A DNA stretch of 64,000 nt from sequence record EF437941; one strand, 5' to 3'. Under the pieces are notes generated by a model, which worked only from the letters and a program-made list of their open reading frames with translations, searched no databases and had not been told where the DNA came from. Shown here one piece after another: positions 12,625 to 40,636 of the stretch; within the stretch, counting starts at the first letter, position 1, and each line of letters begins with the position of its first letter. The stretch is from Escherichia phage Phi1. A program made the translations under genes and the position numbers.

Positions 12625-13445
12625 TTAGTCACCTCACCGAAAATTGTAAATTGTCTACGATTCTCATCGCCGAAAGATTCTACTACGTCGTTTACCTTGA
12701 CGCAAGTCCCGCGCGGTAAAATTACTTCACATTCGCAAGGGTTCCATGCAATTGACCCAACAACAAAACCTTTATGATCTTTTACGTCAATTACCCATGA
12801 TACATTACAAGAATGTTGCATCTTTCCGGTCATGGATTCATATCGATTCTCACAATAAAGGCTAGTGCTATTTGAAAGCCAGCCTCCAAAGATGATCGGT
12901 GTCATGCTGGTCGATACAAAGTTTTTAAAGGTAAACTCCTTATCTTCAATAATACGCTCTATTGTCTGAATGTCAAGATGTTGACCGCGATAAAGAGTAC
13001 CGTTTAACTTTTCGGTTTTATCCATGACACAATCCATCAAATCAACAATCTCTGATATCTCATCGGTCATGTCTTCTTCCCCTAAGAGAGCACCATTTAC
13101 CCATTCGTATTGTTCAGACACATAATCACAGATTGCATTATATTCTGCTGGGGTTATGTTGTTATGTTTGTAATGTTTGAATACATTATCTCCAAAGTCT
13201 TCGGAGTGTACTTCATACATCACATTAATGATTTTCTTGACAAATCCATAATCTTGTGTCTCACGCTCAAGGAAGCGGATAACCTTCACATAATCATCAA
13301 AGTTAATCTGATCGCTGATCATCTCAGTGATCATGTAACCATTAATCCCCTCAATGTCATATGTTTCGATGTAATTATCCATACGTTCCATCATTGATTC
13401 GCGTGATTCTTCTGAAAGACGAAAATCCTGTAATTTCTTGAACAT
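12621..13445 (-). CDS. Alt-like ADP-ribosyltransferase paralog (catalytic domain only)
   Basis: Shares YRG ... FxFKNFVSTS ... IFGGW ... ECE(V/I)LPRG motifs with the C-terminus of the adjacent alt gene. Confidence 0.6.
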   Translation of the reverse strand: MFKKLQDFRLSEESRESMMERMDNYIETYDIEGINGYMITEMISDQINFDDYVKVIRFLERETQDYGFVKKIINVMYEVHSEDFGDNVFKHYKHNNITPAEYNAICDYVSEQYEWVNGALLGEEDMTDEISEIVDLMDCVMDKTEKLNGTLYRGQHLDIQTIERIIEDKEFTFKNFVSTSMTPIIFGGWLSNSTSLYCENRYESMTGKMQHSCNVSWVIDVKDHKGFVVGSIAWNPCECEVILPRGTCVKVNDVVESFGDENRRQFTIFGEVTK

Positions 13446-13463
13446 TTTAAACCTCCCATATAA

Positions 13464-13496
13464 CAGAAAACGGGGCTAGTATAAAACTAGTCCCCG
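13464..13496 (-). terminator. Rho-independent terminator downstream of alt
   Basis: CGGGGCTAGT...ACTAGTCCCCG hairpin followed on the minus strand by UUUUCUG. Confidence 0.5.
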
Positions 13497-13523
13497 TTTG
13501 AGTCAACCATTATTTCTTAAAAA

Positions 13524-15643: not shown

Positions 15644-15856
15644 TTATAATGCACCATCGAGCAATTGCTCTAAGGTGTATCCTGAATAGTCTTTTTCAAT
15701 CAGGGTATATTTTCCTACTCGTTTAATACAACCGCGCATTTCAACGTATTCTGCGTAGTTGATGGTACGAGTTGTTCCATCTTCCAGTAATGCAGTACCG
15801 ATTTCGTTAATGCGGTCATAAGTTACGTCGGTAATGATGATTTCGATGTTAGCCAT
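15644..15856 (-). CDS. Small hypothetical early protein
   Basis: 70 aa ORF with GGAG RBS, preceded by an early promoter cassette. Confidence 0.5.
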   Translation of the reverse strand: MANIEIIITDVTYDRINEIGTALLEDGTTRTINYAEYVEMRGCIKRVGKYTLIEKDYSGYTLEQLLDGAL

Positions 15857-15892
15857 TTGATACTCCTTAGTAGTTCGTTTCGGTATGGGTGT

Positions 15893-15922
15893 ATTATGAT
15901 ATACACCCTCTGTTATGTCAAC
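15893..15922 (-). promoter_or_regulatory. Early promoter cassette (TTGACA-N17-CATAAT)
   Basis: Minus-strand GTTGACA, 17-nt spacer, CATAAT, then the conserved leader ACCCATACCGAAACGAA and GGAG RBS. Confidence 0.6.
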
Positions 15923-15928
15923 AACTTT

Positions 15929-16108
15929 TTAGAACATTTTTGAAATTAATTTTGCTTTGATTTCGCAGAGAACACCTAAAGATTTCTCGTCACCCGCTTT
16001 TGCTGCTTCTGATTGCATTTTTGAAATGGCTTCAATGTCAGTGCAATTATAAGCCGCTTGAACTTTAGCGATTGCGATGATTGCCGATTCGATGGTTAAG
16101 TGTTTCAT
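15929..16108 (-). CDS. Small hypothetical early protein (59 aa)
   Basis: ORF below the track cutoff (MKHLTIESAI...), read by hand, with RBS and its own promoter cassette. Confidence 0.45.
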   Translation of the reverse strand: MKHLTIESAIIAIAKVQAAYNCTDIEAISKMQSEAAKAGDEKSLGVLCEIKAKLISKMF

Positions 16109-16140
16109 GTTTGATTCTCCTTTCGTTTCGGTATGTGTGT

Positions 16141-16171
16141 ATTATGGGGGATCACCGATCCCCCTGTCAAC
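16141..16171 (-). promoter_or_regulatory. Early promoter cassette with GATC palindrome in spacer
   Basis: TTGACA, spacer GGGGGATCGGTGATCCCCC (perfect inverted repeat), CATAAT, conserved leader. Confidence 0.6.
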
Positions 16172-16177
16172 AACTTT

Positions 16178-16732
16178 TTAGTTATTTTTTAATTGCTCAT
16201 CTTGCAATAGGGAAATCACATGCTGGCGATGTTCTTCCGATTGAGGGACACCGAAAAAGTTTGTTTTGTAGAAATACTCTAATCGGTCTTCTCGTGTGCT
16301 CTCTTCCATCATGATCGCGGGTAGTCCGAGATTTCGGAAACGTCGCTTTTCTGCTGGCGTAAAATCACTGTAATACAGCATAGAATCATCGTTACCAGCA
16401 ATGCTAAACTCATCATTCATGAAGGAGAATATTGCGTTTAAACGCTGTTTACCGTCCACGATTTCGATCTCATAGCGAGAGCCATCATCAATCTTAGCCA
16501 TTGCGATAGCACCAACCGGAAAATCATTAATCAGGTTTTCGATAAACATACGTTTGTTTTCGGTGTCCCATACCAAAGGACGCTGATAATCTGGGTTCAT
16601 GTTGATATAGCCATCTTCTAACCACGCCTCATAAACAGAGATGACAAAGTTTTTAGTATTGGTATAGTAACGGCGTTTAGGCGTTAAACGGTTCATGTTA
16701 TAGTCTCCTGAATGGATCATCACGTAAATCAA
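16178..16732 (-). CDS. ParB/Srx-fold DUF262-like protein
   Basis: Motifs PDYQRPLVW and IVDGKQRLNAI resemble the DUF262 (GmrSD N-terminal) signature; last gene of a coupled operon. Confidence 0.5.
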   Translation of the reverse strand: MIYVMIHSGDYNMNRLTPKRRYYTNTKNFVISVYEAWLEDGYINMNPDYQRPLVWDTENKRMFIENLINDFPVGAIAMAKIDDGSRYEIEIVDGKQRLNAIFSFMNDEFSIAGNDDSMLYYSDFTPAEKRRFRNLGLPAIMMEESTREDRLEYFYKTNFFGVPQSEEHRQHVISLLQDEQLKNN

Positions 16733-17030
16733 TATCTTTTAAGAACTCATCCCATGAATGGCGGATATTGTTCTTAATTCTCCAGATAAGCGCAGGGATT
16801 GAACGCTCTCCCATCTGGAAGTAAGGATCATATGATCCGTATGCCCAATATGCTACTACAATTCCACAATCAGCGCAATAATATTCTATTTCACTTGCTG
16901 GCGACCAAAGTCCATCAATATGATCGGTGATCCTGCTTTCGATGTTATGGCTATGGCAATCAGGGCAACGGATGCAATGACCTTGTTTATCGTAATTTGA
17001 CGTTAGCGAATACTTAAACAATCTCATCAT
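16698..17030 (-). CDS. Zinc-ribbon protein
   Basis: CxxC...CxxC pairs (CIRCPDC, CADCG); overlaps both neighbours, suggesting translational coupling. Confidence 0.45.
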   Translation of the reverse strand: MMRLFKYSLTSNYDKQGHCIRCPDCHSHNIESRITDHIDGLWSPASEIEYYCADCGIVVAYWAYGSYDPYFQMGERSIPALIWRIKNNIRHSWDEFLKDIDLRDDPFRRL

Positions 17031-17743
17031 AGATCCTTATTGGCTTCAAATACTGCCTTTGCGAATCCTCGCGGGGTAAGTGACCTGATAGTCTTTGTTC
17101 TGGTTCCTTTCCCGCCTAGCTTAGAATGCTGTTTACTGTACCCTTTATTAATATGCAACGGTTTCTTTTCTGGCATTATAAAGCCTTGTCCGGTCCATAA
17201 GCAAGTCTTTTTCGGGTACATATCACGGGCGGCAATATACTCAGGAAACGTAGGATGTTTATCATCTTCCGGCAAATAACCGCCATATTCCCACGGATGG
17301 AACATGTAATCAGGCTTACGCCACATACTAGAGATAACGCTTACAGGATTCTCTATCATGTAGGGAACTCCTAGCCATTCACCCAAATAAGCGGTTATTT
17401 TAGCTGCCCGTACATCATGAACTTGAATCAATGGTCCTTGTTCTCGTTTCTTTCGTTCAAAGTGTGCAGCGCCACTAACAGCTAAATTGGTGCACGGTGG
17501 GAATGCAAATATAATATCCGGTTTCCCCCATTCAAGGTCCATTGCTCTTTCCAGCCAGTTCAAATCAATCCAGGTGTTTACATAAGTAATGTTTGGATGT
17601 TCAAATCTGGTATTATACTTTTTGTATGTACCGTGGTCGGCGTCATCCGCATTAAAGCAGACTACCTTATGACCTGCTTTAGCCCATTCTAGCCCCATTA
17701 TCCCCGATCCGTCAAAGTTGCAGAATATTAATTTTTGTTTCAT
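17027..17743 (-). CDS. Minimal cytosine-C5 methyltransferase-like protein
   Basis: 238 aa with motif I-like FDGSG, motif IV-like FPPC and motif VI-like ENP in canonical order; no obvious target-recognition domain. Confidence 0.4.
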   Translation of the reverse strand: MKQKLIFCNFDGSGIMGLEWAKAGHKVVCFNADDADHGTYKKYNTRFEHPNITYVNTWIDLNWLERAMDLEWGKPDIIFAFPPCTNLAVSGAAHFERKKREQGPLIQVHDVRAAKITAYLGEWLGVPYMIENPVSVISSMWRKPDYMFHPWEYGGYLPEDDKHPTFPEYIAARDMYPKKTCLWTGQGFIMPEKKPLHINKGYSKQHSKLGGKGTRTKTIRSLTPRGFAKAVFEANKDL

Positions 17744-17985
17744 ATACGACCCTTTAACCCAGCACAGATTTTAGTCGGTTCTTTACCGTGCCACATTAAG
17801 TAAAGTCCGTTAATGCGACCTTGTTTTGTGTGTGATTCTTTTCTGATCTTCTTATAGTGTCGTGCTTCCTCAACTGATTGTTTAGAATACCAATCATAAA
17901 GGAAGAGGCACAAAGGCCAACCATTAGCGGCCTTAATGCAGTTATTAAGAAATTCCTTATTGCGTTTAATTAATTTTCTTTTCAC
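17740..17985 (-). CDS. Small basic hypothetical protein
   Basis: 81 aa, Lys/Arg-rich, overlaps neighbours by 4 nt. Confidence 0.45.
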   Translation of the reverse strand: MKRKLIKRNKEFLNNCIKAANGWPLCLFLYDWYSKQSVEEARHYKKIRKESHTKQGRINGLYLMWHGKEPTKICAGLKGRI

Positions 17986-18233
17986 GCTGCCCCCATTGGT
18001 TTGATAGTAACAGAATCTAAAAGACCTTTGTTAGCCAGTTCGCGGCAAGTTTTCAGATCCGTAACTTCCCAGCCAGCCGCAATCAGGTTATCGATGAGGC
18101 TGTTAGCTACTTCCTCGCTCATGAAAGAGCACTGTTTGCCGATGGTGTAGCGCACACGATGTAATTTCAGTTTACGGAAGCCTTTAACGTTCAGGTCTTT
18201 AGCGATTTTCTTTGCGGTTTCGATGTTAGCCAT
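17982..18233 (-). CDS. Small hypothetical protein (first gene of the operon)
   Basis: 83 aa, GGAG RBS, directly downstream of a promoter cassette. Confidence 0.5.
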   Translation of the reverse strand: MANIETAKKIAKDLNVKGFRKLKLHRVRYTIGKQCSFMSEEVANSLIDNLIAAGWEVTDLKTCRELANKGLLDSVTIKPMGAA

Positions 18234-18273
18234 TGTTTGATTCTCCTAAGTGGTATCTCGTTTCGATGGTTGT

Positions 18274-18304
18274 ATTGTAGGGGGAGTTATCCTCCCCTGT
18301 CAAC
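18274..18304 (-). promoter_or_regulatory. Early promoter cassette (TTGACA-N18-TACAAT)
   Basis: Spacer holds the palindrome GGGGAGGATAACTCCCCC; conserved leader and RBS follow. Confidence 0.55.
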
Positions 18305-18317
18305 ACTTTTTATAAAA

Positions 18318-18485
18318 TTATTTGTTAATTTCTGGTGCGTTGCTAGGATAGTAACCTTCTTTAACTCCGAGGTATTTCGCAACCATCCCTACAATCTTCT
18401 GTGCTACTACAATGTCAAATTTCAGATAATCTTCGCCGTGGGTTTCAATGATATATGCTTCACATGCTGCTTTAGTCTCGAACAT
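18318..18485 (-). CDS. Small hypothetical protein (55 aa), paralog of 21593..21760
   Basis: MFETKAACEAYIIETHGEDYLKFDIVVAQK..., roughly 89 percent identical to the second copy. Confidence 0.5.
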   Translation of the reverse strand: MFETKAACEAYIIETHGEDYLKFDIVVAQKIVGMVAKYLGVKEGYYPSNAPEINK

Positions 18486-18518
18486 TTTGATTCTCCTATT
18501 TCGTTTCGGTATGTGTGT

Positions 18519-18548
18519 AGTATAGGGGATCTCCCGACCCCCGTCAAC
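18519..18548 (-). promoter_or_regulatory. Early promoter cassette (TTGACG-N17-TATACT)
   Basis: Conserved architecture with a GATC-containing GC-rich spacer. Confidence 0.5.
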
Positions 18549-18561
18549 AACTTTTTTAAAA

Positions 18562-18843
18562 TTATTCGTGATTAGTTTCGATGTTGTGCATTTTGCACCA
18601 GTTCAACCAATCACCCATATCTTGATAGTTGATGCTTTTATCTGCTGCCATCGTTTTTGTCTTGATACCCATATGTGCGTTATGAGTAAGCATTTTTACA
18701 GTGAACTCAATTTTATCGCCTTTAGCTTTAACATCAACCAGTTTGGTCCACTGGCTACCAGCGCCGCGAATGTTCATACCAACGATGTTTCCGATGTATG
18801 CTTCTTTGTTTTTCAGGATTTCGGTTGCTTTGATGAATTTCAT
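18562..18843 (-). CDS. Small hypothetical early protein
   Basis: 93 aa with RBS and own promoter cassette. Confidence 0.5.
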   Translation of the reverse strand: MKFIKATEILKNKEAYIGNIVGMNIRGAGSQWTKLVDVKAKGDKIEFTVKMLTHNAHMGIKTKTMAADKSINYQDMGDWLNWCKMHNIETNHE

Positions 18844-18876
18844 TTTTGATTCTCCAGTTCGTTTCGGTATGGGTGT

Positions 18877-18906
18877 ATTATGCTATGTTCTTACTTTGGT
18901 GTCAAC
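18877..18906 (-). promoter_or_regulatory. Early promoter cassette (TTGACA-N17-CATAAT)
   Basis: Conserved -35, -10 and leader. Confidence 0.6.
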
Positions 18907-18913
18907 AACTTTT

Positions 18914-19183
18914 TTAGATATTTTCAGAAATAAATTTTAAAACTTGACGTAAATGTTTCTCATCTTTGATAGTCGCCGGAAGTTCTTCTTTTACTTCCTG
19001 TGCAAGATAGATATTTCCGTTCCAAGTGAAAGATCCGTCTTTGTTTACGCGATAGCTGAACATCCACTCGCAATCATTTTCGATTTCATATACACACAGA
19101 AGGGTGTAATCGTTAAAGCTATTGATTTCAAGGTCGAAGCCGTGACGTTTTGCAAAGTTGGTAGTGGTTTTAGTCAGTGCCAT
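18914..19183 (-). CDS. Small hypothetical early protein
   Basis: 89 aa with RBS and own promoter cassette. Confidence 0.5.
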   Translation of the reverse strand: MALTKTTTNFAKRHGFDLEINSFNDYTLLCVYEIENDCEWMFSYRVNKDGSFTWNGNIYLAQEVKEELPATIKDEKHLRQVLKFISENI

Positions 19184-19223
19184 TGTTTGATTCTCCTAAG
19201 TGGTATCTCGTTTCGATGGGTGT

Positions 19224-19253
19224 ATTATGCTATAGGTCGGATCTGGTGTCAAT
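19224..19253 (-). promoter_or_regulatory. Early promoter cassette (TTGACA-N17-CATAAT)
   Basis: Conserved -35, -10 and leader. Confidence 0.6.
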
Positions 19254-19275
19254 TCTTTTTTTAAAATTTTATGCA

Positions 19276-19302
19276 ATAAAAAAGCCGACGCTAAGGTCGG
19301 CT
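19276..19302 (-). terminator. Rho-independent terminator
   Basis: GCCGACCTTAGCGTCGGC hairpin followed on the minus strand by UUUUUUAUU. Confidence 0.65.
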
Positions 19303-19309
19303 AATAAAA

Positions 19310-19618
19310 TCATTTAGACAAATAATCATTCAGTGCAATCCGGTCGGCGTATGCTGGTGTTACGTCAATCGCAATCACTTTAACGCGTGCTTTCTTGCGA
19401 CCTGGGTTTTCACGTAACCAGTGCTCATGACCGTGAACATTTTTATACTGCGATGCTTCTTCGAAGGTACGGATCGGACCTGGGTAATCAGCGTAAAGGA
19501 TCTCTAGATCTTCGGTGATGTAAAAATATACATCATAATTACTGTTCTCTAGTTTAAGCAGAGACTTTCGGAACATTGGGAGATTTTCGCGGGTAAATTC
19601 AAAGATATTATCTTTCAT
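19310..19618 (-). CDS. H-x-H-W family small protein (member 1)
   Basis: HGHEHWL ... VIAIDVTPAYAD motif block shared with five paralogs. Confidence 0.5.
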   Translation of the reverse strand: MKDNIFEFTRENLPMFRKSLLKLENSNYDVYFYITEDLEILYADYPGPIRTFEEASQYKNVHGHEHWLRENPGRKKARVKVIAIDVTPAYADRIALNDYLSK

Positions 19619-19668
19619 AGTATTATCCTCAATAGTTGGATGAGAAGGGGCGTTAACGCCCCCATATA

Positions 19669-19956
19669 TTAAAACAGTCCTTCATGTACACCGTAGTAGA
19701 GTTCGTCGCTGATAATTTCATTAATGCGACGGTGTGCATATTCCTGATTTGCGAAGTTGTCAGCAAGTTCTACTTTAGTTTCGCCGTCATGAGTCCATTT
19801 AGTGATAACTTTACCATCTGCAAATTTGAAGTTGAACTCTTTAGCTACTGCATCGCGTACCAGACGTGCAAACTTATTGTTGCGGATTGCATTGTCGGTT
19901 TCGTGTGAAGCGTGAGCAAATTTGTTAACTTTCAGAGTGATAGTGATGTATGCCAT
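19669..19956 (-). CDS. Small hypothetical protein, paralog of 22995..23306
   Basis: Shares an AKEFN(F/T)K block with the 22995..23306 product. Confidence 0.5.
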   Translation of the reverse strand: MAYITITLKVNKFAHASHETDNAIRNNKFARLVRDAVAKEFNFKFADGKVITKWTHDGETKVELADNFANQEYAHRRINEIISDELYYGVHEGLF

Positions 19957-20002
19957 AATTTGATTCTCCTAGTTAGAAAGTGTATCTCGTTTTGATGGGG
20001 AT

Positions 20003-20032
20003 ATTATGCTATATCCCCGATCCGGTGTCAAC
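20003..20032 (-). promoter_or_regulatory. Early promoter cassette (TTGACA-N17-CATAAT)
   Basis: Conserved architecture; spacer palindrome GGATCGGGGATAT... Confidence 0.55.
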
Positions 20033-20037
20033 ACTTT

Positions 20038-20316
20038 TTATAAAATAATTTTTTGATATTTTTCTATGATGTTCGTGTAAGTCACATCAACCGCTAGCAC
20101 CGTTGCTTCGAATCCACCGTTTAGCCAATGGCTATGATCATGGTCGTGAAAGAAACCTAGACCAGTACGAAGACCTTCTTTATATTCTGCGCGTACATTC
20201 AGTTTGTCGTCGATAAACAGATAAAACCATGAATTTTTACTAGGATTGATGATACAACCTTTCAGATTAGGGAGAATATCACGACTAAGAATAAACTTAT
20301 CACCTACTTTGAACAT
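20038..20316 (-). CDS. H-x-H-W family small protein (member 2)
   Basis: HDHDHSHWL ... VLAVDVT motif; start placed at the internal Met with GAGGA RBS. Confidence 0.5.
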   Translation of the reverse strand: MFKVGDKFILSRDILPNLKGCIINPSKNSWFYLFIDDKLNVRAEYKEGLRTGLGFFHDHDHSHWLNGGFEATVLAVDVTYTNIIEKYQKIIL

Positions 20317-20320
20317 AATA

Positions 20321-20641
20321 TTAGTCCTCACTTATAAGGTCAAACCAATTGTTTTTCGCATAATGCTTAATGCGTGCTTGATCTGCTTCCGCTGGTGATA
20401 GATTCCATGCAACCACTACAACTTCTGACGCATCGTCATCCGTTTCTGATACCCAATGATTGTGATTCATACAGTTATTTGCTATCGAGTGAGCAAATGA
20501 TTTCATCACTGGAGACGTATAATCATAGTAACGGATTTTCAGATTTTCATCAACATACAAATAGATCGTATAAGGTTTATATTCAGTAACCAGTAACAGA
20601 CAGTTACGCAATTCTGGGAAAATCTTTTTAGTTAATTTCAT
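20321..20641 (-). CDS. H-x-H-W family small protein (member 3)
   Basis: NHNHW ... VVVVAW..SPAEAD motif. Confidence 0.45.
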   Translation of the reverse strand: MKLTKKIFPELRNCLLLVTEYKPYTIYLYVDENLKIRYYDYTSPVMKSFAHSIANNCMNHNHWVSETDDDASEVVVVAWNLSPAEADQARIKHYAKNNWFDLISED

Positions 20642-20843
20642 ATTCTAGTTCTCCGTAATACACGGTAATCCATTTTTCTTCATACTTTGTATCTTTCCAA
20701 CACACAATACCGTTTACTGTGCAATCTTTGGAATTGACGAATGATTCATATTGTTCCGCATCTTCCATCATTTCATGAGCGGTCTTTTCATCGAATATAT
20801 CGCAGATCGCTTTATATGCTCGATAATCTTTAAATTTGCTCAT
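20628..20843 (-). CDS. Small hypothetical protein, paralog of 20846..21055
   Basis: MSKFKDYRAY... shares its N-terminus and a cysteine pattern with the adjacent gene. Confidence 0.45.
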   Translation of the reverse strand: MSKFKDYRAYKAICDIFDEKTAHEMMEDAEQYESFVNSKDCTVNGIVCWKDTKYEEKWITVYYGELEYEIN

Positions 20844-20845
20844 AA

Positions 20846-21055
20846 TTAACACCACTCAAGAGTTTTTGAAAACACATCTATCCATTGTTGAGTATATGCG
20901 GTTTCTTTCCATGATACAATACCAGTCGAATAATGGTTTTTGTTTCCAGAAAAGGACGGGCATTTTGATGCATCTTCCATCATCTTTTCGGCGAACTCTG
21001 GTTCGTATACTCGCAAGATCTGTTGATATGCTTTATAATCTTTAAACTTACTCAT
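20846..21055 (-). CDS. Small hypothetical protein, paralog of 20628..20843
   Basis: MSKFKDYKAY...; tandem duplicate. Confidence 0.45.
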   Translation of the reverse strand: MSKFKDYKAYQQILRVYEPEFAEKMMEDASKCPSFSGNKNHYSTGIVSWKETAYTQQWIDVFSKTLEWC

Positions 21056-21336
21056 AACAACACCACCGATACATCGTAATCATTCGCGGCCTTATCGGCT
21101 TCTTCAACCGACATAATACCTTCTGCGACAATTGGCATAGGGTGATCGTGATTCCACCAATGGTCATGTATATCAATTTCAGTTTTGCCGGAAAATGAAT
21201 CATGTTTGACGTTTTTCACTTTATACCCGATGTGACCGTCGTGGTCAATAAAGATATAGTTTCCGAAAATCGGTGTCTGTAAAATCATACCGAAAAATTT
21301 TTCTTTGTTGTTCGGGTCGAGTGTAATCATTTTCAT
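21052..21336 (-). CDS. H-x-H-W family small protein (member 4)
   Basis: IHDHWWNHDHP ... motif. Confidence 0.45.
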   Translation of the reverse strand: MKMITLDPNNKEKFFGMILQTPIFGNYIFIDHDGHIGYKVKNVKHDSFSGKTEIDIHDHWWNHDHPMPIVAEGIMSVEEADKAANDYDVSVVLL

Positions 21337-21348
21337 AATATATTCCTC

Positions 21349-21528
21349 TTAGAAAGGGATGGTCATTTCTTGAGCTTGTACATTCTCATTAGGATTAAAC
21401 TTAATCCAACCGATATTGTCTACCAGCATATGCACATTTTTATCATATCCTACGTGAGTAGTCAACACTAAATGTGATTTACCTTCAACGATGATTTCCA
21501 TGTACTTCTGAACTTCGATAGCTTTCAT
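21349..21528 (-). CDS. Small hypothetical protein (59 aa)
   Basis: ORF below the track cutoff (MKAIEVQKYM...), read by hand, with RBS downstream of a promoter cassette. Confidence 0.4.
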   Translation of the reverse strand: MKAIEVQKYMEIIVEGKSHLVLTTHVGYDKNVHMLVDNIGWIKFNPNENVQAQEMTIPF

Positions 21529-21560
21529 TTTGATTCTCCGTTTGTTGTCTTGATGGGAGT

Positions 21561-21590
21561 ATCTTACTACTCCCTTTAATCATTGTCAAC
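21561..21590 (-). promoter_or_regulatory. Early promoter cassette (TTGACA-N17-TAAGAT)
   Basis: Variant -10 with the palindrome GGGAGTAGTAAGATACTCCC around it. Confidence 0.45.
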
Positions 21591-21592
21591 TA

Positions 21593-21760
21593 TTATTTGT
21601 TAATTTCCGGTGCGTTGCTTGGATAGTAACCTTCTTTAACACCCAGATATTTTGCAACCATTCCGGTGATCTTCTGTGCTACTACGATATCGAATTTCAG
21701 GTAGTCTTCACCGTGGGTTGCTACAAAGTATGCTTCGCATTCTGCTTTAGTCTGGAACAT
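21593..21760 (-). CDS. Small hypothetical protein (55 aa), paralog of 18318..18485
   Basis: MFQTKAECEAYFVATHGEDYLKFDIVVAQK...; the track ORF has an unlikely N-terminal extension across the promoter. Confidence 0.5.
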   Translation of the reverse strand: MFQTKAECEAYFVATHGEDYLKFDIVVAQKITGMVAKYLGVKEGYYPSNAPEINK

Positions 21761-21793
21761 TTTGATTCTCCTATATCTCGTTGGTATGTGTGT

Positions 21794-21823
21794 AGTATAG
21801 GGGATCGGTGATCCCCTGTCAAC
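21794..21823 (-). promoter_or_regulatory. Early promoter cassette (TTGACA-N17-TATACT) with GATC palindrome
   Basis: Spacer AGGGGATCACCGATCCCCT. Confidence 0.55.
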
Positions 21824-21830
21824 AACTTTT

Positions 21831-22139
21831 TTATTCTTCATCTTCATTTTTATCTTTATATGCGTACTTCATAAATTTGTCTGCTACTTTGTCCGCGTTT
21901 TCAGGTTCTACGTCTGACGCTAGGACAACAGCTAGTTCGGTTTTGTCGTTTCCATCATACCAATGATTATGAGTGTCGTTTTCTTCGATATAAAACGAAT
22001 CATTTGGAGTTGTGCGACAATATACGTCTAAATTCCCATCGATATAAAAGATCCAATCCGAATACAAAATGATTGCGTTAGCCAGATTTTTATTGTCTCT
22101 TACAAAAGGTTCCGCGACAAATAGCTTAGTTTGTTCCAT
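21831..22139 (-). CDS. H-x-H-W family small protein (member 5)
   Basis: THNHWY ... LAVVLASDVEPENADK motif; start at the internal Met with GAGGAAA RBS. Confidence 0.5.
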   Translation of the reverse strand: MEQTKLFVAEPFVRDNKNLANAIILYSDWIFYIDGNLDVYCRTTPNDSFYIEENDTHNHWYDGNDKTELAVVLASDVEPENADKVADKFMKYAYKDKNEDEE

Positions 22140-22155
22140 AATATTTTCCTCAAAA

Positions 22156-22347
22156 TTATACAGCTTCGTAAACTTCCCAATGTTCAGCGCCAACACGCTT
22201 AACGAAAAGGTTTTCTTTGATGTTATTCATAAACGTCTGGATGGATTTAATGCGGTTGGAAGGTTTCCAGTCTTCGTTGGCATTGCGATGATACATAATA
22301 ACATTACCAGTTCGCTTATATTCAGCAACCATTTTAAGACCACACAT
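22156..22347 (-). CDS. Small hypothetical protein
   Basis: 63 aa with GAGGATAA RBS. Confidence 0.45.
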   Translation of the reverse strand: MCGLKMVAEYKRTGNVIMYHRNANEDWKPSNRIKSIQTFMNNIKENLFVKRVGAEHWEVYEAV

Positions 22348-22404
22348 AATATTATCCTCAATTTGTGGGAGAGTATTACCCCTCCCAATGATTGTTATGT
22401 TATA

Positions 22405-22725
22405 TCACACAAAATGGCGTGTCAATGCTTCTTTTGCGGTTCCGCTAAGACTTTCGATCTCGCCTGGCATAACATCAACCGCCAGAACTTCTACAACATC
22501 CTCGGACCCTAACCAGTGAGTATGGCCTTTGTAGAACTTGATAACCAGACTACCTTCCTCATCCCATTTAACACTATCGCTAGCCCACCACACATCACCG
22601 TCGATAAAGTTGATGTAAAGCACACTACGCCACATTGAATTAATTACTTTCAATACTGCGCCTTTCATCTCTTCCACGGTATGGTCTTCCATTTTGAAGA
22701 CCTCACCTACCTGAACTTTTGCCAT
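22405..22725 (-). CDS. H-x-H-W family small protein (member 6)
   Basis: KGHTHWLGSEDVVEVLAVDVMPGE motif. Confidence 0.5.
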   Translation of the reverse strand: MAKVQVGEVFKMEDHTVEEMKGAVLKVINSMWRSVLYINFIDGDVWWASDSVKWDEEGSLVIKFYKGHTHWLGSEDVVEVLAVDVMPGEIESLSGTAKEALTRHFV

Positions 22726-22742
22726 TTAGTCACCTCTCTTTA

Positions 22743-22922
22743 TTACATAACAATCACGCCAGCCGTTGAAAGTTGATGTTTCAACTGAGCATTTTCTGCT
22801 ACCGTCAAATCAATGATTTCTTGTGACGCTGCAATCATATATCCATTGGTGATATTGTTTTGCATCAGTTCAATGGTTTCTTCGTTGTAGCGGATTTTAG
22901 CGATGATTTCGTTGAAGTTCAT
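22743..22922 (-). CDS. Small hypothetical protein (59 aa)
   Basis: ORF below the track cutoff (MNFNEIIAKI...), read by hand, with RBS downstream of a promoter cassette. Confidence 0.4.
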   Translation of the reverse strand: MNFNEIIAKIRYNEETIELMQNNITNGYMIAASQEIIDLTVAENAQLKHQLSTAGVIVM

Positions 22923-22956
22923 GATTGATTCTCCTAGTTCGTTTCGGTATGTGTGT

Positions 22957-22987
22957 ATTATAGGGGATCTCCCGATCCCCTGTCAAC
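22957..22987 (-). promoter_or_regulatory. Early promoter cassette (TTGACA-N18-TATAAT) with GATC palindrome
   Basis: Spacer GGGGATCGGGAGATCCCC. Confidence 0.6.
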
Positions 22988-22994
22988 AACTTTT

Positions 22995-23306
22995 TTAAAG
23001 TTTTTCCATGATAACGGTCATAATTACATCTTCTGCGCGAGCGGTCAGATTATCAGCGTCAGCATGTGGGCGGTTGGTTGTTACAGAGATAACACCGTTG
23101 CGCACTGGTTTGATATTGATATCAAGATGATCCGCGAAACGTTCGCCAGTTACAGAATGAATTTTGGTGTTAAATTCTTTTGCCAGTGCCTTGCGAACTT
23201 CACGAATCAGGGTAGCGTTTTTCAGTTGGTTCTCCGCGCTCATGGTCTTCTGGGTGTTCATGGTTCCGTCGAAGTCAATCATTGGCAGCGTTACGATGTA
23301 TTTCAT
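22995..23306 (-). CDS. Small hypothetical protein, paralog of 19669..19956
   Basis: 103 aa with the shared AKEFNTK block. Confidence 0.5.
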   Translation of the reverse strand: MKYIVTLPMIDFDGTMNTQKTMSAENQLKNATLIREVRKALAKEFNTKIHSVTGERFADHLDINIKPVRNGVISVTTNRPHADADNLTARAEDVIMTVIMEKL

Positions 23307-23351
23307 TTTTGATTCTCCGTTTAAGAAAGTGTGTTTCGTTTTGATGTGTGT

Positions 23352-23382
23352 ATTATAAGGGGATCACCGATCCCCTGTCAAC
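23352..23382 (-). promoter_or_regulatory. Early promoter cassette (TTGACA-N18-TATAAT) with GATC palindrome
   Basis: Spacer GGGGATCGGTGATCCCCT. Confidence 0.6.
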
Positions 23383-23393
23383 AACTTTTTGAA

Positions 23394-23870
23394 TTATTTT
23401 TCTTGATGCTCGCGCTCGTACTTTTCGAAATAAAATTCTACTGGCTGATCGTGGATTGAAAGCAAGCCAAAGCGTTTAGCCGCTCGCAATCCCATATTGC
23501 GCTGAATGTACTTCTGGAAGTTCTCGCGTATACACTTACGCCAGGATTCTAAGCCCATACAGCTTTTATAAAGATTGCATTGCACACACGCCGGATTCAT
23601 GTTATCAAGTATATCATGCTCCGGTTTATGCATTCCTACAACCTTATACTTCCACGATCCATCATCATTACGAGCAATTCGTCCATTTTCATCATAGACT
23701 ACCTTTGAGCGTCGTAATACTGGTTTGATGTGGTCTGCGTGCCAGCGATCCCCTAGTTCCTCGCCACAATAGGCACAACGTCCACCATATTTCATTTTCA
23801 GGATCTGGCGTTGCTCTTTCTTTGACAATTTTTTAGGTTTAGGGGCTTTCGCCCCTTCATTATCACACAT
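23394..23870 (-). CDS. HNH endonuclease
   Basis: CAYCG ... HADHIKP ... N ... CVQCN: HNH core with a Cys4 zinc site; start overlaps the ligase stop. Confidence 0.7.
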   Translation of the reverse strand: MCDNEGAKAPKPKKLSKKEQRQILKMKYGGRCAYCGEELGDRWHADHIKPVLRRSKVVYDENGRIARNDDGSWKYKVVGMHKPEHDILDNMNPACVQCNLYKSCMGLESWRKCIRENFQKYIQRNMGLRAAKRFGLLSIHDQPVEFYFEKYEREHQEK

Positions 23871-31246: not shown

Positions 31247-31396
31247 TTATGCAACCGCAAACATCAACATTTGAACATTCTTGGCTGTCTGGCTTTCAAA
31301 GTTCTGACATTCTTTGATAATGTCCTCTACTTTCTCGCCGGAGATCTCCGCGTAAGTTTCGATTGCCATTTTCAGTACCGCGTCAAAGTTGTTCAT
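31247..31396 (-). CDS. Small hypothetical protein (49 aa)
   Basis: ORF below the track cutoff (MNNFDAVLKM...), read by hand, with RBS. Confidence 0.35.
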   Translation of the reverse strand: MNNFDAVLKMAIETYAEISGEKVEDIIKECQNFESQTAKNVQMLMFAVA

Positions 31397-31434
31397 TTGA
31401 TTCTCCTTAAAGTGTATTTCGTTTCGATGGGGGT

Positions 31435-31464
31435 ATATTAATACCCCCGTTATTCAGTGTCAAC
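31435..31464 (-). promoter_or_regulatory. Early promoter cassette (TTGACA-N17-TAATAT)
   Basis: Conserved cassette with the palindrome GGGGGTATTAATATACCCCC. Confidence 0.45.
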
Positions 31465-31682
31465 TACTTTTTAATGACAAGTTCGAATTTTGCTACCTTG
31501 CGTCCGCGTTTATTGAAAGCAACCCACGGACGGTTTTCAATGTAGAACAATTCTTCGCCAATAATGAATACTGGCTGATTGTAAAGTCGACCCATCAGGT
31601 CACGTTGACGAATAGTAGTAGATTCGTATACTTCGCCCACTACAAAGTGTTTGTTGATAGAGTCGGTGCAAATAAATTTCAT
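31464..31682 (-). CDS. Small hypothetical protein
   Basis: 72 aa with RBS and own promoter cassette. Confidence 0.45.
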   Translation of the reverse strand: MKFICTDSINKHFVVGEVYESTTIRQRDLMGRLYNQPVFIIGEELFYIENRPWVAFNKRGRKVAKFELVIKK

Positions 31683-31715
31683 TTTGATTCTCCTTTGTTT
31701 CGTTTCGATGGGAGT

Positions 31716-31745
31716 ATCTTACTACCCCCTTTATTCAGTGTCAAC
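31716..31745 (-). promoter_or_regulatory. Early promoter cassette (TTGACA-N17-TAAGAT)
   Basis: Conserved cassette architecture. Confidence 0.45.
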
Positions 31746-31750
31746 TACTT

Positions 31751-31969
31751 TTACTTGTTATATTCATTCCACCATTGGGTGAGCTTATCAATTATTTTTG
31801 TGTTTCTATCCAACTTCTCCCACCGTTTTCGAGGGTTTATCAACCGGAATAGGTAAGGTGTACTTGTTAAACTAACTCGGTCAAAGTAATATTTGATCAG
31901 TTGACATTCAATGATGAGTTTCATCTTTTTACGATGAAAATATGCAATGACTTGTTCTTCTGTTTCCAT
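31751..31969 (-). CDS. Small hypothetical protein
   Basis: 72 aa with RBS and own promoter cassette. Confidence 0.45.
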   Translation of the reverse strand: METEEQVIAYFHRKKMKLIIECQLIKYYFDRVSLTSTPYLFRLINPRKRWEKLDRNTKIIDKLTQWWNEYNK

Positions 31970-31991
31970 ATGTTCCTCCGTTTCGGATGTG

Positions 31992-32021
31992 TATTATGCT
32001 ATGGCAAGATCCGATTGTCAA
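31992..32021 (-). promoter_or_regulatory. Early promoter cassette (TTGACA-N17-CATAAT)
   Basis: Conserved cassette architecture. Confidence 0.55.
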
Positions 32022-32069
32022 CACCCAACAACAAAAAAAGTCGCCACTATGGGCGACTTTGAACAAACA

Positions 32070-34059: not shown

Positions 34060-34226
34060 TATTCGACAACCTCAAAACATTTATCACCAGGAAGAATAGC
34101 CCATTCTATGCCGTATTCATCCTCAACGTAGTAGCAAGCCCCATCATGTCGAGCATCATATACATCACCGACAACAAAGCTATCAGCTAGTTCAAAATCT
34201 ACAGCAACACATTTTAATTTGGTCAT
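34059..34226 (-). CDS. Small hypothetical protein
   Basis: Start placed at the internal Met (MTKLKCVAVD...) with GAGGA RBS, downstream of a promoter cassette. Confidence 0.4.
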   Translation of the reverse strand: MTKLKCVAVDFELADSFVVGDVYDARHDGACYYVEDEYGIEWAILPGDKCFEVVE

Positions 34227-34257
34227 AATAAAATCCTCACTTGTTTTTGATGGTTGT

Positions 34258-34287
34258 ATTATAGCGGGGATTTCTCCCCGCGTCAAC
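34258..34287 (-). promoter_or_regulatory. Early promoter cassette (TTGACG-N17-TATAAT)
   Basis: Spacer palindrome GCGGGGAGAAATCCCCGC; immediately after the nrdA stop. Confidence 0.5.
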
Positions 34288-34294
34288 ACTTATT

Positions 34295-36538
34295 TTACAG
34301 CTTGCAAGATGAGCACTCGCTAGAGTCTTCCGTACCATCTGCACCGTCGCGAACGTTCGCATAATACAGGGTTTTCAGACCGTAATATTGAGCAAACAAC
34401 ATATCATCTAACACATCAGCAATATCGACTTTACCAGTCTTATAAGTGCTTGGATCGTAGGATGTATTGGAACTAATCGCCTGATCCACAAACTTCTGCA
34501 TGATCGCTGCCAGTGTCAGATAAGGCTTGTTACCTTTCTTGATCAGTGTCCAAAGCAGGTCAATAACATCAGCATTATTCTCTACGTTCGGAATAACCTG
34601 ATTAAATTGCCCTTCTTTCGATCCTTTAACCGATACAATCCCGCGAGGCGGTTCAATACCGTTTGTGCTGTTAGATACCTGAGAAGACGACTCACAAGGC
34701 ATCAGAGCCGAAAGCGTACTATTACGAATGCCATATTTTTTCAGGTCTTCGCGCAGTTCTTCCCAATCCATCTCATACACCGGATCAACCAGTTCATCTA
34801 CTGTCTTTTTGTACCAGTCGATAGGAAGTTCACCGCGACCATAGCGTGTTTCGTGCATCAGTTCGCAAGCACCCTTCTCTTTAGCCAGTCGCACACTAGC
34901 TTTAATCAGAGCATATTGCAAGCGTTCAAACGTTTTATGCGTAAACTCGTTAGCGTCTTCATATGTGAAGAAATTATCTGCTAGATATGATGCAAAGTTA
35001 GTTACACCAACACCCAGAGAGCGACGTTTTTTGGCTGTCAGAGCTTGTTCTACAGGATAATCCTGATAATCTAACAGGTTGTCAAGTGCACGCACCATAA
35101 CCATAGCAATGCGTTCTACTTCTTCCATATTTTCGATATCAAAGTTTCCTAAAACATATGCTGCCAAAGTGCATAGGCTGATCTCTGAATCATCACGACC
35201 CATCGGTTTTGTAGGCAGAGCAATTTCACAACACAGGTTAGATTGTTTAATTGGTGCTACATTACGAATAAACGCCCCGTGATTGTTCATGTTGTCTGTG
35301 AACGTTGGGTAGATTCGACCAGTGTTAAAACGTTCAATTGCCACCGCTAAAAACAGGTCTTCGGCTTTAACACGAGTTTTACGAACACTCGGATCTTTTT
35401 CCAGTTTTTCGTAAAGCTGACGGAAACCTTCCTCATCTCGGAAGTATAGATCCCACAACAAGCCACCTGCAACATCTGGACTAAACAGAGTAATGTAATC
35501 CCGTTTAAGGAATCGCTCTACCATCAGGTTATTAATCTGTACGCCGTAGTCAAGATGGCGAATGCGGTTATCTTCCACCCCCTTATTGTTCTTTAACACA
35601 ATCAGACTTTCAAACTCTAAATGCCACATTGGGTAATAGAGAGTCGCCGCCCCGCCACGAATACCGCCTTGTGAGCATGACTTAACGGCAGTCTGAAAAT
35701 GTTTCCAGAATGGGATAACGCCAGTATGACGAACTTCACCATGCCCGATCTTAGATCCTTCCGCGCGAATCATGCCAGCGTTGATACCGATACCAGCACG
35801 CTTGCTAATATACTTGATGATTGCATTTGCTGTTTCGTTGATGCCCTGCAATGAGTCATCACTTTCAATCACCACACACGAACTAAATTGGCGTGTTGGG
35901 GTACGCACACCTGCCATAATCGGAGTAGGCAGAGAGATTTGCTTATTCGCAACAGCATTATAAAAATCAATCACATGTTCAAGTCGATTTTCTGTCTCTT
36001 CTTGATGCAAGCACATACCGATCAGCATATACGCAAATTGCGGTGTTTCGATGATTTTCTTAGTGCTGCGATCCTGAACAAGATATTTCTCTTTTAACTG
36101 CATCGCACCAGCATAGGTCATTTTAAAATCAAGTTTATGGTCGATGAATTTCTCCAGATATTCCACTTCTTCACGGGAATACTTTTGCAGAATTTCGCGA
36201 TCATATTTTCCGGTTGCAATATTGCGCTCAATATGGCAGTAAAAATCAATCGGTTGGAATTGTCCGTATACTGATTTGCGAAGCGCGAACATTGCAAGGT
36301 TACTTGCTACATATTGATAATCTGGTGTTTCTACAGTAATGTTATCTGCTGCGACCTTAATCAATACTTTCTGGATATCATTGGTAGACATACCTTCTGT
36401 CAGAAGTGGTTCAACCATATCAAACAATTCATATGGATCAACGTTATGACCTTCGGCTGCCGCTTCCAGAATTTTCATTACTTTTTCTTTTTCAAACGGA
36501 ACAGTCAGACCGGAAGACTTAACAACATTTTTAATCAT
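34295..36538 (-). CDS. nrdA: Ribonucleotide reductase large subunit
   Basis: 747 aa class Ia RNR alpha with ATP-cone N-terminus, active-site Cys/Asn/Glu region and a C-terminal CxxC tail. Confidence 0.9.
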   Translation of the reverse strand: MIKNVVKSSGLTVPFEKEKVMKILEAAAEGHNVDPYELFDMVEPLLTEGMSTNDIQKVLIKVAADNITVETPDYQYVASNLAMFALRKSVYGQFQPIDFYCHIERNIATGKYDREILQKYSREEVEYLEKFIDHKLDFKMTYAGAMQLKEKYLVQDRSTKKIIETPQFAYMLIGMCLHQEETENRLEHVIDFYNAVANKQISLPTPIMAGVRTPTRQFSSCVVIESDDSLQGINETANAIIKYISKRAGIGINAGMIRAEGSKIGHGEVRHTGVIPFWKHFQTAVKSCSQGGIRGGAATLYYPMWHLEFESLIVLKNNKGVEDNRIRHLDYGVQINNLMVERFLKRDYITLFSPDVAGGLLWDLYFRDEEGFRQLYEKLEKDPSVRKTRVKAEDLFLAVAIERFNTGRIYPTFTDNMNNHGAFIRNVAPIKQSNLCCEIALPTKPMGRDDSEISLCTLAAYVLGNFDIENMEEVERIAMVMVRALDNLLDYQDYPVEQALTAKKRRSLGVGVTNFASYLADNFFTYEDANEFTHKTFERLQYALIKASVRLAKEKGACELMHETRYGRGELPIDWYKKTVDELVDPVYEMDWEELREDLKKYGIRNSTLSALMPCESSSQVSNSTNGIEPPRGIVSVKGSKEGQFNQVIPNVENNADVIDLLWTLIKKGNKPYLTLAAIMQKFVDQAISSNTSYDPSTYKTGKVDIADVLDDMLFAQYYGLKTLYYANVRDGADGTEDSSECSSCKL

Positions 36539-38759: not shown

Positions 38760-39089
38760 TCAAATCAGTTTGAAATAGTTTTCGTTTACATTTTCTTCTG
38801 TGATTGCTGTCTTAAATTCTTGACCGTTATCCGGTGTGATGAAATAACGATCAGAATAATCACGAAAACGTTTTAAGTGAGATACCCCAACATTAACACC
38901 ATTTTCCCAAAAACGAAAGGTAATCATTTTTGGTTCATATCGATAGTCGCTGGTTAACACAGTACCGTCACCGCGACGGGCTTCATAAACCGTAATACAT
39001 TCACGATTAGCGGCTTTAAGGCATTCTTCAATAGTGCCGCACGAGATAATACTTACCTTTTCATCTACGATTTGTTCTACAGTCCACAT
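38760..39089 (-). CDS. Hypothetical protein
   Basis: 109 aa with own promoter cassette and GAGGA RBS. Confidence 0.5.
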   Translation of the reverse strand: MWTVEQIVDEKVSIISCGTIEECLKAANRECITVYEARRGDGTVLTSDYRYEPKMITFRFWENGVNVGVSHLKRFRDYSDRYFITPDNGQEFKTAITEENVNENYFKLI

Positions 39090-39120
39090 AATATAGTCCT
39101 CACTTTGTTTCGATGTTTGT

Positions 39121-39149
39121 ATTATACACTGTTGCGTTACGCTGTCAAC
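39121..39149 (-). promoter_or_regulatory. Early promoter cassette (TTGACA-N16-TATAAT)
   Basis: Conserved -35, -10 and leader. Confidence 0.55.
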
Positions 39150-40519: not shown

Positions 40520-40546
40520 TTTTATCCTCCGTTGTTCGATGTGTGC

Positions 40547-40575: not shown

Positions 40576-40599
40576 ACCTTTTTCATAAATTTTTAGGCA

Positions 40600-40625: not shown

Positions 40626-40636
40626 TGTAAAATTCA

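Follow-up and report, generated by a model that had tools for sequence, protein, structure and literature searches.

The stretch analysed here, a 64,000-nucleotide window of sequence record EF437941 (Escherichia phage Phi1), belongs to a Krischvirus, that is, an RB49-like T4-type coliphage of the Straboviridae, and the flagged part of it shares 98.9% identity over 9 kb with Enterobacteria phage GEC-3S. The interval from 15.9 to 23.4 kb, which is flanked by alt and the DNA ligase gene (gene 30) and is collinear with ORF185c-ORF212c of RB49 (ORF, open reading frame), had been flagged because small minus-strand genes in it are preceded by a repeated promoter cassette. About 60 other Krischvirus genomes match this interval at 92-98%. 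A scored scan followed by manual inspection recovered 24 full cassettes in the window, every one of them on the minus strand, where the original prediction had counted about 22; their locations agree with those proposed, and 11 of them lie in the flagged interval. We estimate at about 0.93 the probability that these repeats are PeSLs ("promoter-early stem-loops"), the compact regulatory cassettes of 80-95 bp that RB49-type (Krischvirus) T4-like phages carry between their genes. This family of elements is already characterised and named, and what is added here refines the known picture and leaves it unchanged. The additions are small: positional hairpin classes with compensatory evidence, a conserved unstructured leader, a RegB-like ribosome-binding block limited to promoter-proximal genes, and the absence of breakpoint enrichment when cassettes are compared with other gene junctions.

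Distribution and anatomy of the cassettes

The repetition is well above chance. The upstream 15-mer AAAAAGTTGTTGACA, with up to three mismatches allowed, is found 30 times in the window against 5.0 +/- 2.5 times in shuffled sequences, and 27 of the 30 matches are on the minus strand; the 16-nt leader ACACATACCGAAACGA has 10 occurrences where 0.5 are expected. The same scan and inspection found no cassette on the plus strand of the window, as the lone weak pattern match, at 9078, was rejected, and none of the 24 catalogued copies falls in the structural gene blocks. Instead, the cassettes cluster at 15.9-23.4, 31.2-32.0 and 58.4-59.8 kb, preceding ORFs of 49-103 aa that are annotated as hypothetical. 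This type of cassette is restricted to Krischvirus, where 5-10 copies per genome can be detected by BLAST.

All copies share the same order of parts: the stop codon of the upstream gene, in or beside an A-tract, followed by TTGACA, a spacer, the -10 hexamer, an ACAC(A/C)C-AT block, an A/C-rich leader, GGAG(A/T)ATCA and ATG. In the A-tract, A occupies positions -9 to -5 in 18-23 of the 24 copies, and the stop codon (TAA in the copies that were read) is inside this tract or a few nucleotides away. The -35 element is TTGAC throughout (24/24), with the final A in 19 and a G at position -1 in 23. Spacers are mostly of 17 nt (16 copies), with 16 nt in three copies and 18 nt in five. The distance from the -10 to the start codon is 23-46 nt, and all 24 cassettes end in a Shine-Dalgarno sequence (SD) and ATG (or GTG).

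That these are sigma70 early promoters, as had been proposed, is borne out by the invariant TTGAC, by the scanner results and by what has been published for the orthologous RB49/phi1 elements (PMC2839356). In fact, the sole matches of 11-12/12 that a generic sigma70 scanner returned between 13 and 24 kb are exactly the cassette sites (a score reached by nine of the 11 cassettes of the flagged interval), and the promoters annotated by the depositors of the GEC-3S record coincide with cassette positions. The features of T4 middle (MotA-dependent) promoters were not found, since no TGCTT box was seen in any of the 24 cassettes and TTGAC stands at -35 in all of them.

Two details of the proposed consensus were too narrow. 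The -10 hexamer is (T/C)ATAAT in some copies, but TATACT, TAAGAT, TACAAT, TAATAT and TAACAT are also seen, with only A2 and T6 invariant. Similarly, the 16-nt leader is exact in about six copies, while the remainder carry related ATC(G/A)AAACGA or ATCAAGACAA leaders. Every leader family is found with two or more classes of hairpin (see below), and identical 38-nt leaders stand behind different spacers in cassettes 18303 and 19252 (cassettes are designated by the first base of their -35; Table 1). The combination of leader families with different hairpin classes indicates that the cassettes are mosaics and implies that exchanges have occurred inside them.

Correspondence with published PeSLs

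PeSLs were described and named by Arbiol et al. in 2010 (PMC2839356) and by Comeau et al. in 2014 (PMC4122927). They are defined by a stop codon, an AT-rich tract, the -35 and -10 elements, a stem-loop in one of five positions, an SD and ATG, and each RB49/phi1 genome has 51-52 of them, mostly in hyperplastic regions before ORFans (PMC2839356); the presence of 24 in a 64-kb window fits this number. Each of these parts is found here, i.e., a near-consensus sigma70 promoter, an AT-rich tract with the stop codon, a G/C stem-loop, and an SD with its start codon, and the cassettes are preferentially located in hyperplastic regions. Additionally, four of the cassettes are near-identical orthologues of individual RB49 PeSLs (Table 1), the near-identity of 23381 to its orthologue excluding the hairpin loop.

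The flagged interval corresponds to the RB49 region in which PeSL promoter and terminator activities were measured. In vivo activities have been measured only for PeSL206/205, 193/192 and 211/210 of RB49 (PMC2839356). For instance, a lacZ fusion with the whole of PeSL206/205 yielded about 13,000 Miller units, and most clones gained point mutations in the -35 or -10 (PMC2839356), presumably because the promoter was too strong. The stem-loop of PeSL211/210, which is of the type called class A below, cut read-through about as well as rrnB T1, and recombination between neighbouring PeSLs produced encapsidated mini-circles (PMC2839356). For the RB49 orthologues, the literature thus establishes that the promoter is active, that one class-A stem-loop terminates transcription and that mini-circles are formed.

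Promoter-embedded hairpins

The original prediction held that conservation extending beyond the promoter hexamers pointed to an additional layer, such as a conserved RNA leader or a factor-binding site. Such a layer exists, but it consists mainly of a stem-loop that had been overlooked; the leader is indeed constrained between orthologues, but it is not a structured RNA. Among the 24 cassettes, eight have the hairpin in the promoter spacer (class A), nine have it around the -10 (class B), four have a canonical terminator upstream instead, and three have none. In class A the spacer is a perfect G-rich/C-rich hairpin, as in TTGACA-GGGGATC-ggt-GATCCCC-TATAAT. In class B the -10 is in the loop and the discriminator forms the 3' arm, as in GGGAGTA-gtaaga-TACTCCC. 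Compared with random 40-mers drawn from the window, the promoter 40-mers of 16 of the 24 cassettes rank at or below the 5th percentile in folding.

Pairing in these stems was assessed by random re-pairing of their arms and by alignment of orthologues, as a MAFFT alignment of class B had mixed two registers. At least 14 distinct stems stay complementary in the window and four relatives, and random re-pairing reaches the observed pairing in 8 of 5000 permutations for class A and in 1 of 5000 for class B. A case in point is cassette 20031, whose stem is GGGGATAT/ATATCCCC in the window, RB49 and GEC-3S and GGGTGTAT/ATACACCC in LF73P4 and JSE. Two pairs are thereby altered on both sides, while the -35, the loop with the -10 and nearly the whole leader are unchanged (there is one G/A difference, in the window copy), and sliding the register lowers the pairing from 92% to 28-56%. 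Consequently, the hairpin appears to be under selection for pairing and not for sequence.

The three imperfect stems bear on the molecule in which this pairing matters, as all of their wobbles are G.T on the sense strand, that is, G.U in the sense RNA. This fits a role in the upstream read-through RNA better than a DNA cruciform. The alternative, that the hairpin acts mainly as DNA, either as the target of a recombination or DNA-binding protein or as a cruciform that stimulates exchange, was already raised as a speculation by the authors who described PeSLs, who linked it to GGGC/GCCC-associated deletions in T4 (PMC2839356). The recurrence of the GGGG...CCCC motif, the lack of a U-tract after class-B hairpins and the presence of GC hairpins in the promoter spacers of the unrelated Certrevirus would agree with it. 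By contrast, a G.U pair is tolerated in RNA but leaves a C.A mismatch on the other arm of a cruciform, and the hairpins show no concentration of breakpoints. The stem sequences vary widely while pairing is kept, which speaks against recognition by a sequence-specific protein, and the classical terminator in the equivalent upstream position of four copies points to a role at the transcript level. We therefore regard a mainly DNA-level function as unlikely and prefer a role of the hairpin in RNA, within the PeSL reading.

A Dam/GATC explanation for the GGATC...GATCC stems was also considered and rejected, as GATC is not avoided in the window but over-represented (361 sites against about 230 expected from base composition). 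The 14 GATC sites inside the 24 promoter cores are due to these stems and to the shared ancestry of the copies.

Table 1. PeSL-type cassettes and one degraded copy in the 64-kb window, with class A hairpins in the promoter spacer and class B hairpins around the -10 (RBS, ribosome-binding site).
Positions	Strand	-35 first base	Hairpin or terminator	Other features
13443..13521	-	13506	class B, bulged, 13472-13495, then GTTTTCTG	before ADP-ribosyltransferase gene 12621-13445; TTGACT, 17 nt, TATACT; promoter annotated in GEC-3S
15854..15936	-	15921	class B, GGGTGTAT/ATACACCC 15887-15908 around -10 CATAAT	drives 70-aa ORF 15644-15856
16106..16185	-	16170	class A, GGGGGATC-ggt-GATCCCCC 16146-16164	drives 59-aa ORF 15929-16108
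18231..18318	-	18303	class A, GGGGAG-gataa-CTCCCC 18281-18297	leader same as cassette 19252
18483..18562	-	18547	class A, 18525-18542, one G.T wobble	orthologue of RB49 PeSL192/191
18841..18920	-	18905	none	11/12 promoter match; standard leader
19181..19302	-	19252	no spacer hairpin; intrinsic terminator AGCCGAC...GTCGGCT + TTTTTATT 19278-19302	terminator just upstream of A-tract
19954..20046	-	20031	class B, GGGGATAT/ATATCCCC 19997-20018	
21526..21604	-	21589	class B, GGGAGTA-gtaaga-TACTCCC ~21555-21577	-10 TAAGAT
21758..21837	-	21822	class A, 21799-21817	orthologue of RB49 PeSL206/205, the measured promoter copy (PMC2839356)
22920..23001	-	22986	class A, 22962-22981	12/12 promoter match; orthologue of RB49 PeSL210/209
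23304..23396	-	23381	class A, 23358-23376	12/12 promoter match; orthologue of RB49 PeSL211/210, stem-loop tested in vivo as terminator (PMC2839356)
31174..31253	-	31238	class B, ~31204-31225	RBS block GGAGTATCAAG
31394..31478	-	31463	class B, GGGGGTAT-taat-ATACCCCC 31429-31448	
31680..31759	-	31744	class B with G.T wobble, 31710-31729	
31967..32060	-	32021	canonical upstream terminator 32033-32060; no promoter-embedded hairpin	
34224..34301	-	34286	class A, GCGGGGA-gaaa-TCCCCGC 34264-34281	between nrdA and small ORFs; GAGGA-type RBS
39087..39163	-	39148	none	16-nt spacer; overlaps 3' end of endonuclease ORF
40517..40626	-	40574	UUCG-loop terminator upstream, 40602-40626	downstream of gene 32
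41603..41684	-	41669	none	most divergent copy: TTGACA, 16 nt, TATAAT; upstream of gene 32; different leader
58418..58500	-	58485	class B with G.T wobble, 58451-58470	GAGGA-type RBS
58646..58723	-	58708	class A, 58685-58703	
59192..59271	-	59256	class B, TGGGAGTAT-taac-ATACTCCCA 59221-59242	
59696..59798	-	59758	canonical upstream terminator 59773-59798	
57274..57354	-			degraded "half-PeSL": three perfect 27-nt tandem copies of A-tract and -35 half (AGTACAACCGAAAATAAGTTGTTGACA)

The half-PeSL in the last line of Table 1 has no -10, and a GAGGA-type RBS and ATG follow it directly. It looks like the "degraded 1/2 PeSLs" described for PST and nt-1, which were ascribed to recombinational slippage (PMC4122927).

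Leader and ribosome-binding block

The leaders do not behave as structured RNAs. The minimum free energies of six representative leaders are between 0 and -2.6 kcal/mol (z of 0.1-1.5 against shuffled sequences), so that they fold no better than their shuffles, and Rfam gave no match in the window. On these two grounds a structured cis-regulatory leader (a riboswitch, an attenuator or a member of an Rfam family) was discarded.

Nevertheless, the leader is conserved. When orthologous positions were compared among the window, RB49, LF73P4 and JSE, no divergence was observed in the -35 hexamer (0/198, 0%), and that of the leader with the SD (19/1014, 1.9%) was below those of codon positions 1+2 (372/13196, 2.8%), other intergenic DNA (50/871, 5.7%), third codon positions (533/6571, 8.1%) and the spacer (65/573, 11.3%). 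The difference from third codon positions (p=4e-16) and that from other intergenic DNA (p=1e-5) are both significant.

Additionally, the initiation block distinguishes the first gene behind a cassette from the others. GGAG[AT]ATCA precedes 17 of the 24 cassette-proximal genes and none of 70 other genes (p=1.6e-13), and any GGAG precedes 20 and 14 of them, respectively. Internal genes have a different conserved block, (T/G)GAGGAnnATATTATG (GAGGAnnAUAUUAUG), which is seen, for instance, at the starts at 19618, 20316, 21336, 22139, 22347, 27241 and 57260. Several indel breakpoints relative to related phages fall at junctions with this internal block (16699, 17981, 21057, 22158 and 22728), so that it may also act as a short recombination linker.

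The cassette block recalls the sites cut by T4 RegB with S1. In T4 the site is GGAGRAYARAA, with GGAGAAUAAAA as its optimum, and it must be single-stranded (PMC1702504). The cassette block GGAGAAUCAAA agrees with the T4 consensus at 10 of 11 positions, the mismatch being a C at position 8. It is therefore possible, though we would put the odds somewhat against it, that the leader and GGAG(A/U)AUCAAA are the target of an endoribonuclease of the RegB/S1 type, whose cut would stop the promoter-proximal gene from being translated a few minutes into infection. Such a function would be compatible with the PeSL explanation and would add to it, and the leader may double as an initial transcribed region optimised for promoter escape or for translation. 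The confinement of the block to cassette-proximal genes, the near-match to the consensus, the unstructured leaders that a RegB/S1 site requires and the low divergence of leader and SD relative to other intergenic DNA would all agree with this idea, as would the diverged RegB of RB49, which cleaves in GGAG/U (PMC3014915). By contrast, C is almost excluded from the A-rich tail of T4 sites, where A8 is among the most conserved positions (PMC1702504), regB is absent from the 64-kb window, that of RB49 being taken from the literature only, GGAG is also simply a good SD, and the shared block may merely have been inherited with the cassette or homogenised by conversion. In consequence, a RegB/S1 layer at the cassette leaders is plausible but unproven.

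If it were real, the timed shut-off would apply only to the promoter-proximal accessory gene, and internal genes with GAGGAnnAUAUUAUG would escape it. The dichotomy between cassette leaders and internal RBSs thus offers a simple handle on whether RegB-type mRNA shut-off is targeted via the cassette.

Recombination and gene content

The proposal that the repeats provide homology for gene shuffling was right: such recombination is published for the RB49/phi1 elements, and cassette-flanked insertions do exist. It needs the nuance that there is no enrichment over other gene junctions (see below). For instance, a slot at the upstream edge of cassette 18547 (18555-18566) is unoccupied in the window and GEC-3S, while RB49 has ORF192 (477 nt) there and JSE has another ORF, of 312 nt. 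In RB49, ORF195/196 is inserted between duplicated copies of cassette 19252 (19205-19301), and both RB49 and JSE have an insertion, ORF211, immediately upstream of cassette 23381, at 23401-23410. As the window phage is without ORF192, ORF195/196 and ORF211 of RB49, it has fewer cassettes in this region than RB49.

Breakpoints were compiled from RB49, JSE, LF73P4 and GEC-3S, together with the listed end-points of further matches and leaving out Cognac, Whisky and Brandy. Of the 17 distinct breakpoints, seven fall within cassettes, and the other 10 lie at ordinary gene junctions or close to them. Since cassettes make up about 14% of the DNA, this is an enrichment over random sequence (p=0.005). 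These observations favour an exchange of modules at gene boundaries, where PeSLs would be one of several kinds of linker.

Several genes of the region also deserve mention. Two minus-strand ORFs of 55 aa (18318-18485 and 21593-21760) are about 89% identical (49/55, counted by eye) and each stands behind a class-A cassette (18547 and 21822, respectively), so that gene and cassette were duplicated as one. Six minus-strand ORFs of 92-106 aa (19310-19618, 20038-20316, 20321-20641, 21052-21336, 21831-22139 and 22405-22725) form a divergent paralogous family, with 22-32% identity and an invariant H-x-H-W motif, and no member has a Pfam match above threshold. The 172-aa ORF at 16178-16696 on the minus strand has a GmrSD_N / DUF262 nuclease-type domain (E=4e-20) and, two genes away and still inside the hyperplastic region, there is a cytosine-methyltransferase-like gene (17027-17743, minus strand); the two may be an anti-defence or defence-like pair. 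Finally, an endonuclease-like ORF of 460 aa (39137-40519) is found between frd and gene 32. It is about 180 nt longer than annotated in GEC-3S, and it has cassette 39148 overlapping its 3' end and the UUCG-loop terminator with cassette 40574 at its 5' end.

This ORF and an HNH gene at 23394-23870 are of the homing type, and their vicinity, together with the number of copies and the association with indels, might suggest that the repeat is a selfish mobile element, either like a miniature inverted-repeat transposable element or associated with a homing endonuclease, instead of a regulatory cassette. We give this almost no credence. The copies have a single orientation and are placed in exact register between a stop codon and the start codon that follows it, they coincide with the best sigma70 matches, their type is confined to one phage genus, and neither terminal inverted repeats nor target-site duplications were found in them; orientation, register and the absence of terminal repeats were considered enough to rule the mobile element out.

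Weight of the PeSL reading

Some of the results weigh against the PeSL reading. The embedded hairpins lack a canonical U-tract and are missed by a generic terminator scan. In the 8 nt after the stem there are 2-4 T in class A and 0-1 in eight of the nine class-B copies (the bulged hairpin of cassette 13506 has 5), against 6-7 in the four true terminators, and we only infer termination by class-B hairpins. Three copies have no hairpin at all, which is thus dispensable for promoter function. The share of breakpoints in cassettes (7/17) does not exceed the share of gene junctions that cassettes represent (11/26, p=0.63), so that PeSLs would be one of several exchange points and not the dominant one. 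Furthermore, the low divergence of the leader and the high divergence of the spacer could derive partly from gene conversion among paralogous cassettes and not from selection.

Two candidates were given up on the same evidence. A canonical intrinsic terminator was rejected for the embedded hairpins on their U-tract, with only the four upstream terminators qualifying; according to the literature the embedded hairpins are attenuator-like, and not canonical terminators. Likewise, the idea that PeSLs are preferential recombination hot spots was abandoned, as the enrichment vanishes when any gene junction is taken as the null.

Gene conversion also enters a more general objection, namely that the cassettes are merely strong promoters whose hairpin, leader and RBS block are functionless hitch-hikers, kept alike by recent duplication and conversion. 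The paralogous genes that carry cassettes (e.g., 18318-18485 and 21593-21760) would be expected from such a history, the identical leaders behind the different spacers of 18303 and 19252 are the product of copy-and-paste and conversion, and the promoter is kept in the three copies that have no hairpin. However, hitch-hiking does not account for the compensatory double substitutions in the orthologous stem of cassette 20031, for the maintenance of pairing in many different stem sequences or for the lower divergence of the leader relative to codon positions 1+2 (1.9% vs 2.8%), and terminator activity has been measured for the RB49 orthologue of 23381 (PMC2839356). Functionless hitch-hiking is thus improbable, and we retain the PeSL reading.

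Proposed working of the cassette

Under the PeSL reading, the near-consensus sigma70 promoter would be used by unmodified host RNA polymerase straight after infection. The A-rich tract before it is UP-element-like and includes the stop codon of the preceding gene. The first transcribed base would be a conserved A that lies about 7 nt beyond the -10. The G-rich/C-rich hairpin is upstream of this start and, therefore, would be formed only in RNA that reads through from the preceding gene; there, it may attenuate or terminate the read-through RNA, or cap its 3' end. In class A the -10 hexamer itself provides a partial A/U-rich tail, which class B does not have. Attenuation or termination at each hairpin would make each small accessory gene, or short group of genes, its own transcription unit. 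The 25-40 nt of unstructured A/C-rich leader, ending in GGAG(A/U)AUCAAA-AUG, would then lead to efficient translation initiation. Finally, as about 50-90 bp are common to many copies in the same orientation, the T4-type recombination machinery could use them to exchange, delete or insert the genes between them.

Comparison with known systems and significance

The cassette has been known for this phage group since 2010, and its closest counterparts are the PeSLs of RB49/phi1 (PMC2839356). They belong to the same genus and to the same hyperplastic region (alt to gene 30), have the same order of parts and share both the G(n)-loop-C(n) form of the stems and the set of alternative positions that these occupy, and individual copies are orthologous and nearly identical. 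There is no essential difference, although some stems differ here by compensatory changes. From a practical point of view, such cassettes are ready-made strong and insulated early expression units for engineering Krischvirus therapy phages, and they mark likely sites of accessory gene gain and loss.

The PeSLs and PmSLs of T4/PST and KVP40/nt-1 follow the same concept, as they combine an early promoter, a stem-loop and an SD in hyperplastic regions and are associated with indels, and they include degraded half-copies and slippage repeats like that at 57274-57354 (PMC4122927). They differ in their consensus (TTTACW...TAYWAT), in their stem-loop (A3-4G3-loop-C3T3-4) and in the position of the latter, which is usually upstream of the promoter and not inside it (PMC4122927).

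With regard to the RBS block, the likeness to the T4 RegB/S1 sites of Durand et al. 2006 (PMC1702504) is threefold: GGAG forms part of the SD of an early gene, its context is single-stranded, and a tail of 7 nt rich in A follows it. The cassette block, a candidate cleavage site, differs by its C at position 8, where T4 has A.

Morons and integron cassettes are also self-contained, transcriptionally insulated accessory units that are gained and lost. PeSLs, however, have neither an integrase nor an attC-type site, and their exchange is thought to use general homologous recombination between cassettes.

A less expected parallel is found outside this phage family. The early promoter of Certrevirus (Vequintavirinae), AAAA(N4)TGTTGAC(N17)TATAAT, has nearly the same extended -35 and A-tract, and its copies are likewise clustered before small early ORFs (Buttimer et al. 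2020, PMC7344957). Certrevirus belongs to an unrelated phage family, its stem has a different sequence (CCGGG...CCCGG), and the published description mentions no hairpin (PMC7344957). In Cronobacter phage PBES 02 (NC_028672.1 142969-146043) the architecture occurs seven times in 3 kb, and all seven copies, when examined, had a GC spacer hairpin. Each unit comprises an A-tract, TTGACG, a hairpin that fills the spacer (CCGGGnnnnnnCCCGG), TATAAT, an A/C-rich leader, an SD and ATG, and precedes a small ORF. Over about 76 nt, one PBES 02 copy shares 75% identity with cassette 18547, and copies related to the PBES 02 element are present in 21 Certrevirus-type records. Two modest and rather doubtful extensions may be proposed: that the GGAGAAUCAAA leader is a dedicated RegB/S1 module that co-evolved with the diverged Krischvirus RegB, and that the spacer hairpin in a sigma70 promoter is a convergent design, in which the -10 hexamer would also serve as an A/U-rich tail for the terminator of the upstream unit. 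The Certrevirus observation suggests that promoter-embedded hairpins may be a more general way of packing many independent early units into very short intergenic spaces.

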